A stretch of DNA of 64,000 bases. Origin: Escherichia coli. GTDB taxonomy: Bacteria > Pseudomonadota > Gammaproteobacteria > Enterobacterales > Enterobacteriaceae. Every line of letters starts with the position of its first letter. The stretch's first letter is position 1. The stretch lies in the NCBI RefSeq assembly GCF_003334255.1, contig NZ_QOWU01000022.1. One strand, given 5' to 3'. A model generated the notes under the pieces. The model worked only from the letters and a program-made list of their open reading frames with translations, did not search any database and was not told where the DNA came from. A program made the position numbers and the translations under genes. Shown one piece after another: positions 3,649-64,000 of this stretch.

Positions 3649-4094
3649 ATCAGTCGCTCACCCTTGCCTTTTTGATTGCCGCCGGAATTGGTCTGGTAGT
3701 CCAGAACACGCTGATGGTGCGCATCACCCAGACCTCCTCTACCATTCTCATCGCCATGTTGCTGAACTCACTGGTGGGGATTGTGCTCTTTGTTTCTATT
3801 TTATGGTTTAAACAAGGTATGGCGGGGTTTGGCGAACTGGTGTCCAGCGTGCGCTGGTGGACACTTATACCTGGCTTGCTGGGATCGTTTTTTGTCTTCG
3901 CCAGTATCAGCGGATATCAGAATGTGGGAGCGGCGACAACTATTGCAGTACTGGTCGCCAGCCAGCTGATTGGCGGTCTGGTTCTGGATATCTTCCGCAG
4001 TCATGGCGTACCACTACGGGCGTTGTTCGGCCCAATTTGTGGCGCAATTTTACTTGTGGTTGGCGCCTGGTTGGTGGCCAGACGCTCATTTTAA
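3645..4094 (+). CDS. ydcZ: Inner membrane protein YdcZ (DMT-like)
   Basis: 149-aa hydrophobic ORF overlapping mnaT stop by 4 nt. Confidence 0.8.
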   Translation: MNQSLTLAFLIAAGIGLVVQNTLMVRITQTSSTILIAMLLNSLVGIVLFVSILWFKQGMAGFGELVSSVRWWTLIPGLLGSFFVFASISGYQNVGAATTIAVLVASQLIGGLVLDIFRSHGVPLRALFGPICGAILLVVGAWLVARRSF

Positions 4095-4587: not shown

Positions 4588-4781
4588 GTACGGGCGTCCA
4601 GCCAGATGAATAAAACGCGCGCAAATATGCGTCATTTTTTGACGTGCATCAAGTTTTTTCACCGGTTTGAGAAAAAAACATCAAACAGCAACTTGCCCTT
4701 ATCCATCTTCAGAATGAGTATGATTGCGGATTTTCTTAACCCGTACTATACACATAGGGGCAATGATAAAAGGTGACAAAA

Positions 4782-4973: not shown

Positions 4974-6398
4974 TTAATGTTTAACCATGACGTGGCGGAC
5001 GACGGTGTAATCCTCCAGCCCATAAAGTGACATATCCTTGCCGTAACCAGAAAGTTTCTGCCCACCGTGCGGCATTTCACTTACCAGCATGAAATGGGTA
5101 TTGACCCAGGTACAACCATATTGCAGCCGTGCGCTGACGCGATGCGCCCTGCCCACATCTTTAGTCCATACCGAAGATGCAAGTCCGTACTGGCTGTCAT
5201 TCGCCCAGTTCACCACCTGTTCTTCGTTGTCGAAGAGCGTAACACTCACTACTGGACCAAATACCTCTTTTTGCACGATGGCATCGTCCTGTAATGCGCC
5301 AGCCAGCAGCGTCGGCGCATAGTAATAGCCATTACCCTTGCGCTTTTCACCGCCGGTGATCACTTTGATATGCCCTGTCGCTTTCGCCTCTTCTACCGCC
5401 TTGCTGACGCGTTCGAGATGCGCCAGCGAGCTTAAAGGTCCAAGCTCCGTAGACTCGTCATCCGGCGCACCCGATTTTAACGTTGCCACCACAGCACCGA
5501 GTTTTTCCACCAGCGTATCGTAAATGCCTTTTTGCGCGTAGATCCGACAAGCCGCAGTACAATCCTGTCCGGCATTGTAATAGCCAAATGTACGTACACC
5601 TTCGACCACTGCTTCAATATCCGCATCATCAAAAACAATCACTGGCGCTTTGCCACCAAGTTCCATATGAGTACGCTTAATGGAGGGCGCGGTATGGCTG
5701 ATGATGTGCTCGCCGGTGGCGATAGAGCCCGTCAGCGACACCATCCGCACTTTGGGATGACCGGTCAGCGGATCCCCCACCGTTTTGCCTCTGCCAAACA
5801 GTACGTTAATCACGCCTGCCGGGAAGATATCTTTCGCCAGCTCTGCCAACTTCAACGCGGTCAGCGGGGTAATTTCTGATGGTTTAAGCACTACGCAGTT
5901 CCCTGCCGCCAGCGCCGGAGCAAGTTTCCACGCGGCCATCATCAGCGGATAATTCCACGGTGCGATAGAAGCCACGACCCCCAACGGATCGCGACGGATC
6001 ATCGAAGTATGACCTTCAAGATATTCACCTGCCGCCAGACCATTCAGACAGCGCGCCGCACCCGCGAAAAAGCGAAAAACATCGACAATCGCCGGGATTT
6101 CATCATTGAACGCACTATGCAGCGGTTTGCCACAATTACGGGACTCCAGTTCGGCAAAAACCTGACCATTTTCTTCGATAACATCAGCCAGTTTCAGCAG
6201 ACATTCCGCACGCACTTTCGGCGTGGTTTGCCCCCATTCGGCAAATGCTGCATCTGCCGCGCGCACAGCAGCATCGACCTGCTCTGCGGATGCCTCGGCA
6301 ATTTCCAGTAAAACGTCCCCCGTTGCCGGATTATAGACAGGCTGTTTTTCCCCTTCGCCGCTAACCAGTTCTCCGTTAATCAGTAACTTATGTTGCAT
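4974..6398 (-). CDS. patD: Gamma-aminobutyraldehyde dehydrogenase
   Basis: 474-aa aldehyde dehydrogenase ORF; follows the ydcSTUV transporter genes on the same strand. Confidence 0.9.
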
Positions 6399-60011: not shown

Positions 60012-61145
60012 ATGAAAAGCAAAGTACTGGCACTTTTAATTCCTGCCCTGCTCGCCGCAGGTGCTGCACATGCAGCCGAAGTTTATAATAAAGACGGCAA
60101 CAAATTAGATCTGTATGGCAAAGTTGATGGCCTGCATTATTTTTCTGATAATTCAGCGAAAGATGGCGACCAGAGCTATGCGCGTCTGGGTTTTAAAGGC
60201 GAAACCCAAATTAACGATCAACTCACTGGCTACGGTCAATGGGAATACAATATTCAGGCAAACAACACTGAATCTTCAAAAAACCAGTCATGGACCCGTC
60301 TGGCATTTGCCGGACTGAAATTTGCAGATTACGGTTCTTTCGATTACGGACGTAATTATGGCGTAATGTACGACATCGAAGGCTGGACCGATATGCTGCC
60401 TGAATTTGGCGGTGACTCTTATACCAATGCAGACAACTTTATGACTGGTCGAGCCAATGGCGTCGCGACTTATCGTAATACTGATTTCTTCGGTCTGGTA
60501 AATGGTCTGAACTTCGCGGTGCAGTATCAAGGTAACAACGAAGGAGCCAGTAATGGTCAGGAAGGCACCAACAACGGACGTGATGTTCGTCATGAAAACG
60601 GTGACGGCTGGGGTCTTTCCACAACATATGATTTAGGCATGGGCTTTAGCGCTGGTGCGGCATACACCTCTTCTGACCGCACCAATGACCAGGTTAACCA
60701 TACTGCGGCGGGTGGTGATAAAGCAGACGCGTGGACTGCTGGGCTAAAATACGATGCTAACAATATTTACCTGGCAACCATGTATTCAGAAACGCGTAAT
60801 ATGACCCCGTTTGGCGACAGCGATTATGCTGTTGCAAACAAAACCCAGAACTTTGAAGTCACTGCACAGTACCAGTTTGATTTTGGTCTGCGTCCGGCAG
60901 TCTCTTTCCTGATGTCTAAAGGCCGTGACCTGCACGCTGCCGGTGGTGCAGACAACCCGGCAGGTGTTGATGATAAAGATCTGGTTAAATACGCCGATGT
61001 TGGCGCGACTTACTATTTCAATAAAAACATGTCCACTTATGTTGACTATAAAATCAACCTGTTGGATGAAGATGACAGTTTCTACGCTGCCAACGGCATC
61101 TCTACCGATGATATTGTCGCTTTAGGTCTGGTTTATCAGTTCTAA
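60012..61145 (+). CDS. ompN: Outer membrane porin N
   Basis: 377-aa general-porin ORF with signal peptide and C-terminal ...LVYQF. Confidence 0.9.
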
Positions 61146-61204: not shown

Positions 61205-61720
<516 letters not shown>

Positions 61721-61726
61721 CACTAA

Positions 61727-61753
61727 CGCCCGCACATTGCTGCGGGCTTTTTG
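61727..61753 (+). terminator. Rho-independent terminator of uspF
   Basis: gcccgca-cattgc-tgcgggc followed by ttttt. Confidence 0.75.
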
Positions 61754-61895
61754 ATTCATTTCGCAAATGTGCTGACATTTTCCCCTCTAATCCGTACCAT
61801 ACACACCACTGTTTTTATTTCAGATTTCTTATGCTGGGCATTCCGGCATGACGCATACTCTTCTGATGCCATATAACGAATTGAGTCGCTTTTAA

Positions 61896-61949
61896 ATGTC
61901 GCAAAATCAAGAAATTAGTAAGAAAGAACAATACAACCTGAACAAGTAA
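61896..61949 (+). pseudogene. ttcC: 17-codon 5' fragment of ttcA (ttcC-like integration-site remnant)
   Basis: Own translation: MSQNQEISKKEQYNLNK then stop; resembles the recalled TtcA N-terminus MQENQQITKKEQYNLNK. Confidence 0.6.
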
Positions 61950-62399
61950 GGGCAAAGATCATAATCATCTGGCGTATAATTATTTTATTTAGTTTTAATA
62001 AATTAAGGCACGTCAGCAGCTACGATGAGCAATAATAACCCACTTTCTTTTTGTCCCATTTTTGCCACAATCAAATAGCCTGAAACCTAGGATAACCGCC
62101 ATTAAACAATAACTAGACCAGCAGACATGCCACTACCGGCACCGTAAAATCCATCAGGCTTGCCACATCCCACGCATGTGGTTCAAAACCGCCTCACCAC
62201 GGCATATTCATACGCTTGCTTGATATGTTCGGTTCCCCAAAAATAAATGGTAACACTACTACAGACTGCTCTTGAAGCACTGAAAGAGCAATACAAACTG
62301 ATTGGACATCATCGCAAAAGCGAAATCACCTTTTATCATCGGGAGGACGGCAGAACCGAAAAGCAAAAACTGCATTTTTCTTGCCCAAGATGTGTAACG

Positions 62400-62666
62400 G
62401 AAAACAGAAACCTTTATTAGTCGGTAAGCAGTTTGGGTGCGAGATGGAATGCAACAGTAATACGTGCTGGTATTCGCCGCCGTAATCCGTACCATACGCA
62501 ACATACTTTTGCCTGCTTACTGTTGACGATTTGAGCGAACCCGGCATTTATATTCAGCCAGACGGGGGATGAAACTGCGCAGATGGTGTATGAAGTGTAT
62601 GCTAATTGGATAGAAAACATGAACAATGAACAAATAGATTTTTTGAACAGAAAGCTATCATCGTGA
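62400..62666 (+). pseudogene. Decayed 3' end of a tyrosine recombinase (integrase) gene
   Basis: Own translation: ...IRAGIRRRNPYHTQHTFACLLLTI*, then in another frame ANPAFIFSQTGDETAQMVYEVYANWIENMNNEQ; no intact N-terminal region. Confidence 0.5.
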
Positions 62667-62751
62667 TGGCTCCTTAAAAAAGACTAAAAAACACCACGAA
62701 TATAGCGCATTACATATTAATGCAGGTGACGTAATGCCACCTACAATGATC

Positions 62752-64000
62752 TTAAGCATCACTCTTGTCTCGAGGTTCCTTTAGATTCAGAACTCGGATC
62801 AATCCATCATGTATTTTATATTCATCAGAATCAATAAACCCTTGTGAAGGGTAAAAACATTTATAACGCCAAATTGTAGACTGACCAACTTTAAACCCAA
62901 TCAATGATATATCGAACATAAAACGTATCTGTTCATTGATCAATTCAGTATTATAATTAGCATCTATTTTTTGCAATTCAGTAACCAGTTCATTCTTAGT
63001 AAAAATTGTAGATGAATGATTCTGTATAGCAGAAAGAAGTATTTTTATTTCAGGGCGCTGAACCGCCCATTCATCATTGATTTCCTGTTTTAACCACTCT
63101 GAGTAACTTGGCTCAGCCTGGTAAATATATTCAACCTCCAACTTATCACCAACAAAATCATTATCTGAGAACGGATCGTTTTTATCATCGCGCATGGAAC
63201 TAATTGTTTTAGTTAATAAACATATCATATCGCGAGGACGCATCATCGAGCGCTTCATCAGATAATTAAAAGGTTTTGCACGCTGCCGCATCTCATGACG
63301 GTCAAAAAGTTCATCAACATCATGAACTAGATCTTTATTTACATTGGCGGCATAATAATTTATTCTTTGGAGAAGCATCTTCATTAAAGTTTCTCTACTC
63401 CAATGAAGAAGAGCCCCGCAATCCTCTCGAAGTTTATTAGAGTCATTCAAGCTCAATACTTCGAATATATCTTCTCGCAGAAAAATCAAAGGTCTAATGT
63501 TACCATTATATTTTGGGGTTATGGCATCAGCAGCGGTGACTAACCCTGCTATAACCCTTCTCGATACATCGACTGAAATTTCATCCCATGCTTCGTCTAT
63601 ACGATCAAAACAAACAAAAACTTTTGCATGCATTGGTTGGCTACTTCGGAGACAATTTTCAAAGTAATCAATTAAATGATCAATATTATTACATAACTTA
63701 TCACGTAAGTCGGGATCATTCGAAGCGGATTCGAAATTTACTTCGCCTCCATCTAACTCAAGGGAATTCAAGTCACCGTCAGATAAATCCAAACCAGCTT
63801 TTGGCAAAGAAATTTTTCCTAAACCCAGTAACTTCCTCCCCACTAATACAGAAATAGAAGGGAATGGTGTATCAAAAATTTTCTCCAGTGCAACTTTAGC
63901 ATTTTTTAATGGTTTAGGTATTGGGTGATGCTGCCAACTTACTGATTTAGTGTATGATGGTGTTTTTGAGGTGCTCCAGTGGCTTCTGTTTCTATCAGCT
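62752..64000 (-). CDS. Uncharacterized protein, 5'-truncated by the window edge, in AT-rich accessory DNA
   Basis: ORF 62752..63843 stays open in frame to base 64000 (own translation of the upstream 157 nt); stop TAA at 62752-62754; AT-rich composition unlike flanking core genes; no confident family assignment. Confidence 0.6.
   Translation of the reverse strand, partial: ADRNRSHWSTSKTPSYTKSVSWQHHPIPKPLKNAKVALEKIFDTPFPSISVLVGRKLLGLGKISLPKAGLDLSDGDLNSLELDGGEVNFESASNDPDLRDKLCNNIDHLIDYFENCLRSSQPMHAKVFVCFDRIDEAWDEISVDVSRRVIAGLVTAADAITPKYNGNIRPLIFLREDIFEVLSLNDSNKLREDCGALLHWSRETLMKMLLQRINYYAANVNKDLVHDVDELFDRHEMRQRAKPFNYLMKRSMMRPRDMICLLTKTISSMRDDKNDPFSDNDFVGDKLEVEYIYQAEPSYSEWLKQEINDEWAVQRPEIKILLSAIQNHSSTIFTKNELVTELQKIDANYNTELINEQIRFMFDISLIGFKVGQSTIWRYKCFYPSQGFIDSDEYKIHDGLIRVLNLKEPRDKSDA

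Follow-up and report, generated by a model that had tools for sequence, protein, structure and literature searches.

A Rac-type prophage remnant at ttcA in Escherichia coli and an integrase fossil that may act as the ttcA promoter

In a 64,000-nucleotide stretch of the Escherichia coli contig NZ_QOWU01000022.1 (assembly GCF_003334255.1; hereafter the window), the gene uspF is followed by a 17-codon open reading frame (ORF) resembling the start of ttcA, and the same 15-mer, TAATCCGTACCATAC, stands on either side of that ORF. Why should one short sequence flank a stranded piece of a host gene? The two copies (copy 1, 61788-61802; copy 2, 62483-62497; both on the + strand) are exact, as a first-pass annotation had noticed, and their identity is far beyond chance. 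The explanation that we consider probable combines a Rac-type prophage remnant with an ancient integrase fossil that has turned into a promoter-like block of ttcA. The 15-mer is not an attachment (att) site: copy 2 is dead integrase coding sequence, and copy 1 is a far older integrase fragment. It occurs twice because both copies descend from one short stretch of the IntR clade of integrases, the codons RNPYHT before the catalytic Arg.

The stranded ORF (61896-61949, + strand) identifies the setting. It reads MSQNQEISKKEQYNLNK followed by a stop codon, the same sequence as the start of ttcA in prophage-free genomes and as the K-12 pseudogene ttcC (b4638), so its earlier likening to the TtcA N-terminus stands. 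We refer to it as ttcC′, the displaced original 5′ end of ttcA, which forms attL. Within ttcA codons 9-17 lies the 26-bp att core AAGAAAGAACAATACAACCTGAACAA (repeat family D1), found at 61920-61945 (+ strand, attL copy) and again at 15681-15706 of L001, the locus of E. coli G1/2, which extends past the window; the window is 100% identical to the G1/2 chromosome, and window coordinates equal L001 coordinates plus 49699. The core lies in a 51-nt direct repeat of 86% identity (window 61895-61945 against L001 15656-15706), and its 26 bp are identical to the sequence common to attL and attR of Rac in K-12, a prophage that integrates in the 5′ end of ttcA (Liu 2015, PMC4632033; PMC6379469). By blastn, 61599-62066 is 91.7% identical to the K-12 uspF-ttcC-Rac junction, a match that takes in a Rac-like phage arm of ~120 nt adjoining attL (61946-62066, + strand). 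The alignment with K-12 ttcA, ttcC and the Rac ends that the first-pass annotation had proposed thus finds ttcC identical, the Rac core shared and the left arm ~92% identical. Past the window, the remainder of an ATPase gene and a 283-nt gap precede an intact ttcA whose first codons, MPENQQVTKKEQYNLNK, are unlike the stranded fragment.

Core repeats at the boundaries, ttcC′ beside uspF together with an intact ttcA that has an element-supplied 5′ end, and an integrase gene of the IntR clade are the marks of a Rac-type remnant. As read from its sequence, the region is the attL junction left by a Rac-type lambdoid prophage that had entered the 5′ end of ttcA and later lost nearly all of its DNA. 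The whole insert measures ~2.7 kb plus IS1 and is present in only 6 of 5426 complete E. coli genomes. The one trace of phage structural or regulatory genes in it is 119 nt (62101-62219, − strand) of a gene that lambdoid prophages carry in their tail-fibre region, 88-90% identical to copies in ~2000 genomes; the gene encodes a hypothetical protein and sits beside tail-fibre and tfa genes. No xis, repressor or morphogenesis gene is annotated in the element, which we class as a remnant and not as a prophage because its phage functions are gone. In the history that we propose, an IntR-type recombinase would have crossed over in the 26-bp core within ttcA codons 9-17, stranding the original promoter and the first 17 codons beside uspF as ttcC′ while the element supplied a new ttcA 5′ end. 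Deletions would then have left 120 bp of phage arm, the 119-nt tail-fibre-region fragment, the last third of the integrase gene (int) and an ATPase cargo gene, into which IS1 would have inserted only after those deletions.

Copy 2 of the 15-mer lies in a dead remnant, the 3′ third of a gene for an IntR-type tyrosine integrase (62219-62666, + strand; IntR residues ~256-411), at codons R-N-P-Y-H-T directly before the RHTFA motif. By tblastn the fragment shows 75% amino-acid identity to K-12 IntR residues 274-411 (E = 7e-69), which bears out the earlier description of a decayed tyrosine-recombinase C-terminal end; its nucleotide identity to the IntR type is 86-88%, and a further piece in another frame reaches back to IntR residue ~256. 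The catalytic-Tyr-like segment MVYEVYANWI, also picked out earlier, aligns with IntR MVYEIYGMWI, and the fragment carries the clade-specific NPYHT motif. The N-terminal ~255 codons are gone, there is a local frameshift at ~62372-62417, and in-frame stops stand at 62418-62420 and 62532-62534; past copy 2 it is an in-frame stop that breaks the reading, instead of the frameshifts first suggested. The catalytic Arg358 of the RHTFA motif is replaced by Gln (HTQHT). The Prokaryotic Genome Annotation Pipeline (PGAP) records a frameshifted, N-terminally truncated site-specific integrase, and the 138-amino-acid conceptual int′ translation gave no NCBIfam match at E ≤ 1. With neither the ORF nor the catalytic residues intact, the fragment is not a functional tyrosine recombinase gene. 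Among the island carriers, the int pseudogene is 27 bp longer in L004 (MB06232; 3144-3627) than in the others (3144-3600 in L005).

The likeness between the two copies extends beyond the 15-mer. It runs ungapped over 47 nt at 74% (61769-61815 against 62464-62510; repeat family D2), and in the flanks outside the 15-mer 20 of 32 positions are identical (binomial p = 2.5e-5). Between the 175-nt spacer that separates uspF from the 17-codon ORF and the 448-nt int fragment, the chance expectation of exact shared 15-mers is ~6.5e-5. With up to two mismatches allowed, the only further match in the 64 kb begins at 4737; shuffled windows held 0.11 matches on average, and three or more were found in 0 of 100 shuffles. 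A generic repeat is ruled out, the 15-mer being single-copy at each site. The near-match (4737-4751, TAACCCGTACTATAC, two mismatches) is followed by ACAC, as in the block around copy 1, and lies downstream of an aldehyde dehydrogenase gene. Considered as a third integrase relic, it was set aside as an unrelated intergenic stretch, the chance expectation of one such match being ~10%, and the likeness is probably fortuitous.

The placement of the two copies is equally informative. K-12 carries both 15-mers too, one upstream of ttcC and one in intR, and in intact Rac copy 2 sits ~245 nt from the core, within catalytic-domain codons. Neither copy falls on an element boundary, copy 1 standing 118 nt upstream of attL and copy 2 inside int. 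The earlier suggestion that the 15-mer might be an att core is contradicted by the boundaries of the island, which are formed by a different repeat, the 26-bp ttcA core; it is this core, and not the repeated 15-mer, that should be used as the att marker at ttcA.

What, then, is copy 1? It is part of a block at 61765-61815 (+ strand; repeat family D2) in the native uspF-ttcA spacer, which tblastn and nhmmer lead us to read as an ancient IntR-clade integrase fossil. The block reads KCADIFPSNPYHTHHCF where IntR has KRAGIRRRNPYHTRHTF (codons ~344-362), in frame and ungapped, with a tblastn E value of 0.004; among native spacers the in-frame reading is KCADIFPSNPYHT(R/H)HCF. A profile built from six int 3′ ends and searched with nhmmer found every one of the 10 native spacers, with matches of 45-56 nt (E = 2e-7 to 5e-5; 4e-6 for E. 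coli). The unclassified enterobacterial genome L044 keeps a less decayed form, AGIRRRNPYHTRH (E = 1e-8), which precedes a native-type MSQNQ start by 72 nt; after the 15-mer this locus continues with native-type ACACGCCA, where int has GCGGCA. The motif NPYHT is peculiar to the ttcA-adjacent IntR clade, whereas in relatives that use other sites, 933W and BP-4795 among them, the corresponding residues are K(A/S)YQS, encoded by quite different codons. Since the fossil has this clade-specific motif and also the family-wide K, A, I, Y, R and H positions, chance supply by host promoter DNA is ruled out, and the direction of descent, as far as sequence can tell, runs clearly from phage to host. Integrase diversity was taken from a phage collection; a search of viral contigs with IntR returned only copies that were 99-100% identical.

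The suggestion of integrase motifs on both sides of the ttcA fragment is thus right as to origin, the upstream copy being integrase-derived by tblastn, nhmmer and L044, and wrong in calling that copy a 3′ end as such. In the same way, the idea that the 15-mer is integrase-end sequence survives only in part: both copies come from integrase, and in copy 1 only ~19 codons of the box II region are recognizable. Because both copies are integrase-derived, and of very different age, the site has been used and has decayed more than once, as had been supposed; we count at least two such events. A by-eye likeness of CTGATGCC..TATGAATT to int CAGATGGTGTATGAAATT was considered as well and is unproven, its alignment not rising above shuffles. 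In Salmonella enterica subsp. arizonae (L024), where the locus is arranged differently, a decayed int-like sequence, RSGTRRRNPYPTQ, follows uspF at a distance of ~500 nt (~3920-3980), and the nearest 3 kb contain no ttcA.

The distribution of copy 1 shows how far it is from a local scar. Genomes in which an intact ttcA comes directly after uspF are 98-99% identical to the window over 61700-61945; in a prophage-free genome copy 1 is present and the intact ttcA begins 175 bp after uspF. Of 5426 E. coli genomes, 4845, some of them prophage-free, gave a single unannotated match to a 76-nt query around copy 1, and ~580 gave none; strain ATCC 8739, which has no element integrated at ttcA, is among those with the native block. 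We compared species by anchoring on UspF, with one genome per species and 43 loci. In a nine-species alignment the sub-blocks TGCTGACAT and ATCCGTACCATAC.C.CCAC are invariant in the spacers of Escherichia, Citrobacter, Klebsiella and Enterobacter sp. 10-1, and the remaining spacer is variable or unalignable, making the block its most conserved part. The fossil was probably in place upstream of ttcA before the split of Escherichia, Citrobacter and Klebsiella. The first-pass annotation had made the upstream copy a local scar flanking the ttcA fragment; in fact prophage-free E. coli have it in their native spacer, and it is found in three genera. Overall, that annotation was sound on the ttcA fragment, on the two integrase-derived pieces and on repeated use of the site, and mistaken about the function of the 15-mer and about the upstream copy, both its age and its nature.

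The block has the form of a promoter. A consensus scan finds CTGACA (−35, 61772-61777), a 17-nt spacer and TACCAT (−10, 61795-61800), agreeing at 9 of 12 positions with sigma-70 hexamers on the + strand (61772-61800), and the −10 ends 95 nt before the ttcA ATG in the native arrangement. Copy 1 of the 15-mer covers spacer and −10 of this predicted promoter. Over the whole region, sigma-70-like sites show no excess (2 found, 2.4 expected), and the two hexamers are conserved in the nine-species alignment while neighbouring sequence varies. From the hexamers and this footprint we infer that the copy 1 block may now serve as ttcA's own conserved sigma-70 promoter. In the present strain the predicted promoter can drive only ttcC′ and the phage arm.

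In MG1655, transcription of ttcA has been mapped. Its starts, at 1,410,083 and 1,410,086 (NC_000913.2), precede the ATG by 111 and 114 nt (Kim 2012, PMC3415461, supplementary file 2). Both fall inside intR at the Tyr-motif codons, with −10 TATGAA, ~60 nt before the intR stop, a position equivalent to window ~62575-62600. MG1655 being a Rac lysogen, the 3′ end of int thus supplies ttcA transcription after integration, and the Rac integrase gene carries a working ttcA promoter in K-12.

Integrase sequences of the IntR clade offer a further hint of function at the DNA level. Among seven IntR-clade sequences (K-12, G1/2, L013, L014, L020, L025 and L038), none of 8 codons in N-P-Y-H-T and H-T-F varies synonymously, as against 17 of 24 other amino-acid-invariant degenerate codons (hypergeometric p = 6e-4, with the boundaries, codons 353-361, chosen post hoc). 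Frozen synonymous sites could mean a DNA-level function inside living int, and could equally reflect shared ancestry or the small sample. Several of the seven are pseudogenes with decayed flanks in which the block of codons 353-361 is nevertheless intact. A perfect 6+6 palindrome, AAATGT-GCTG-ACATTT (61765-61780), overlaps the predicted −35 and is conserved across genera; it may be a binding site for a regulator.

In form, younger stubs stand between a whole integrase gene and the native block. Truncated int 3′ ends immediately precede ttcA in several Citrobacter, three Klebsiella species, E. albertii and E. coli SCU-176, where a 77-codon stub occupies 4511-4792 of L136. Other carriers of stubs include C. 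youngae ATCC 29220, the E. albertii type strain and Citrobacter sp. NCU1 (L031). These fragments begin at IntR residues ~288-335, lack ttcC′ and have the native block absent or cut, and box II is kept in all of them. In two Citrobacter loci (L031 and L033) the Tyr region is deleted, box II is kept and GGT has become GAC, a change that yields exactly the native −35, CTGACA. Short Tyr-less stubs with the GAC variant lie 40 nt upstream of ttcA, at ~5200-5360, in L029, L031 and L033, and are a possible intermediate in the conversion of stub to promoter. In SCU-176 the native block is itself cut inside the 15-mer (..CTCTAATC, then ATTACA..; L136 2501-2540) and is followed by ~2 kb of unrelated pseudogenes.

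These observations suggest a cycle. Integration at codons 9-17 would cut ttcA from its resident promoter and bring new first codons, after which transcription of ttcA would rely on the int 3′ end. Loss of the prophage by deletion would therefore be tolerated only where this end survives. The remaining stub would evolve under selection for ttcA expression until it took over as resident promoter, which a further integration could strand in turn. The 15-mer would then occur twice because G1/2 displays both ends of this cycle side by side. On these grounds we infer a selective reason for the retention of stubs. The broader proposal, that ttcA in Escherichia, Citrobacter and Klebsiella has as its resident promoter a recycled fragment of integrase catalytic-domain sequence and that cycles of integration and decay repeatedly overwrite the promoter and the first eight codons, we put forward tentatively, as a possibility somewhat short of likely. 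If it is true, selection for ttcA expression would explain why the deletion of prophages never takes the int 3′ stub, why the −35 of stubs drifts from CTGGTA through CTGGCA to CTGACA, and why codons 353-361 are synonymously frozen even in living IntR-clade genes, where the stretch would double as a promoter of the host gene.

Several results weigh against an integrase origin and a promoter role for copy 1. The homology comprises ~45-50 nt only. A Pfam scan of the 32-amino-acid conceptual fossil peptide gave no match even at E ≤ 10, which we attribute to a peptide too short and too decayed, and NCBIfam gave none either. Downstream of the 15-mer, a local alignment of the E. coli spacer with int scores 9.0 where shuffles average 8.6. 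The age of the fossil rests on 43 uspF-anchored species, and genera without uspF-ttcA linkage lie outside that sample. Finally, the MG1655 start dataset (3,746 starts, a shallow set; PMC3415461) contains no start upstream of ttcC and none at box II of intR, which is the weakest point of the promoter reading.

How else could the two copies be explained? They might be two recent local integrase remnants flanking the ttcA fragment after successive integrations, with the 15-mer as att core or recognition sequence. An exact 15-mer on each side of ttcC′, reading NPYHT both times, is what this account would produce, but copy 1 occurs in prophage-free genomes and other genera, the repeat bounding the island is the 26-bp one, and copy 2 of intact Rac lies ~245 nt from the core in catalytic-domain codons; we regard it as highly improbable. 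It is also quite unlikely that copy 1 is simply the ttcA promoter and resembles int by coincidence or convergence, for example with an internal int promoter of similar sequence. Promoter-like form and deep conservation would follow, and the frozen synonymous sites are compatible with a DNA-level function inside int. A promoter, however, would hold only its two hexamers constant, and here 15 nt in a row, spacer positions among them, are shared; the match keeps the reading frame for 17 codons and takes in family-conserved residues; L044, L031 and L033 bridge the int and native forms; and the chance expectation of 6.5e-5 is small.

Transfer in the opposite direction, in which an ancestor of the IntR clade took the ttcA promoter region into int as it took the first ttcA codons, gains some colour from the host-derived ttcA 5′ codons that the phage carries beside int. 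The shared stretch, though, sits in the catalytic domain and aligns ungapped with relatives at other sites (KRAGLRHRKxYQSRHTYACW), so that non-coding host DNA would need to encode family-conserved residues by chance, and we give this account scarcely any credence. More room must be left for a block that is integrase-derived and conserved for some other reason, as a regulator site, part of an RNA leader or a signal of the uspF 3′ end. The AAATGT-N4-ACATTT palindrome, conservation that reaches beyond the two hexamers and the lack of a mapped start there in the 3,746-start K-12 dataset all point that way; the hexamers and their 17-nt spacing fit sigma-70, the block has no Rfam match and lies downstream of the uspF terminator, and RNAalifold on the putative ttcA leader of eight species found no convincing conserved structure (−4.6 kcal/mol). 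We consider this account unlikely. The integrase fossil turned promoter-like block, beside a Rac-type remnant, remains our preferred explanation.

Upstream of the junction lie ompN (60012-61145, + strand) and uspF (61286-61720, + strand), the latter with an intrinsic terminator on the same strand (61728-61753; stem 61728-61747 and a T run) that a terminator scan identifies and that is kept in all aligned species. An Rfam scan of 61600-62800 gave as its sole match a sub-threshold STnc310 on this terminator (E = 0.96). The annotated order in G1/2 is uspF, int pseudogene, ATPase, IS1, ATPase, ttcA. The ATPase is a P-loop protein of the Sll1717 family: its homologue in L005 scores 263.6 bits against NF047389 (cut-off 75). 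The window holds the 3′ part of the gene (62752-63923, − strand) and, as far as it reaches, the left end of a 768-bp IS1 (63924-64000, + strand). In G1/2 the gene is split by IS1 (window 62752-64000 and L001 13053-15374), which is flanked by the 9-bp target duplication TAGGTATTG at 63915-63923 and L001 14993-15001; in two of the six island genomes it is uninterrupted at 514 amino acids (L004 3713-5257; L005 3686-5230). Against the anti-phage family NF053860 it scores 58.6 bits, below the cut-off of 370, and PADLOC gave only a partial match to the candidate PDC-M28C (E = 4e-9), which does not make it a known defence system. Its place is after the int stop codon and before the phage arm on the attR side, a position that is empty in Rac. 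We read the gene as cargo inserted in a Rac-like element, and leave a residual chance to two tandem elements.

Seen against known systems, the locus is ordinary: another decayed Rac-type element at a well-known att site, already annotated by PGAP as a pseudogene. It resembles Rac of K-12 (ttcC b4638 at attL, intR-ttcA at attR; PMC4632033) in its site, its 26-bp core, the stranded 17-codon ttcC′, the IntR-type integrase, an attL-side arm that is 92% identical and an element that supplies a new TtcA N-terminus, which begins MPENQQV here and MQENQQI in K-12 Rac. Unlike the 23-kb Rac, only ~2.7 kb plus IS1 are left, int survives only as a dead, truncated gene, and neither xis nor any phage function is left; the space between the int stop and attR holds an Sll1717-family ATPase gene, while in Rac only 51 bp separate the end of intR from ttcA. 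The wider interest lies in a datable series from intact int through stubs to an invariant 50-nt block, which suggests that recombinase coding sequence became regulatory DNA of a housekeeping gene. It offers a modest evolutionary lead, a selective reason why int 3′ ends persist as the last trace of prophages inserted in gene 5′ ends. In the open-access full-text literature we found no report of integrase coding sequence as a conserved ttcA promoter, and there 'ttcC' appears only as unrelated acronyms.

Duplicated target-gene fragments also mark the ends of the 'grounded prophages' e14 at icd and DLP12 at argU in K-12 (PMC6379469). Unlike the present element these integrate at 3′ ends, so no promoter is replaced. 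Islands specific for dusA, another tRNA-modification gene, replace its first codons, have left many remnants (Farrugia et al. 2015, PMC4482086) and bring putative −35 and −10 elements so that the gene stays expressed (PMC4482086); they differ in integrase family and target gene, and an integrase fragment as resident promoter is not reported there. At the 5′ end of mutL in Streptococcus pyogenes, SpyCI islands are reported to cut the gene from its promoter, and a promoter encoded by the element to rescue expression (PMC3430984); the system is Gram-positive, switches dynamically and has a promoter that is not integrase coding sequence. By analogy, the dusA islands and SpyCI would be the closest counterparts of the mechanism proposed here.

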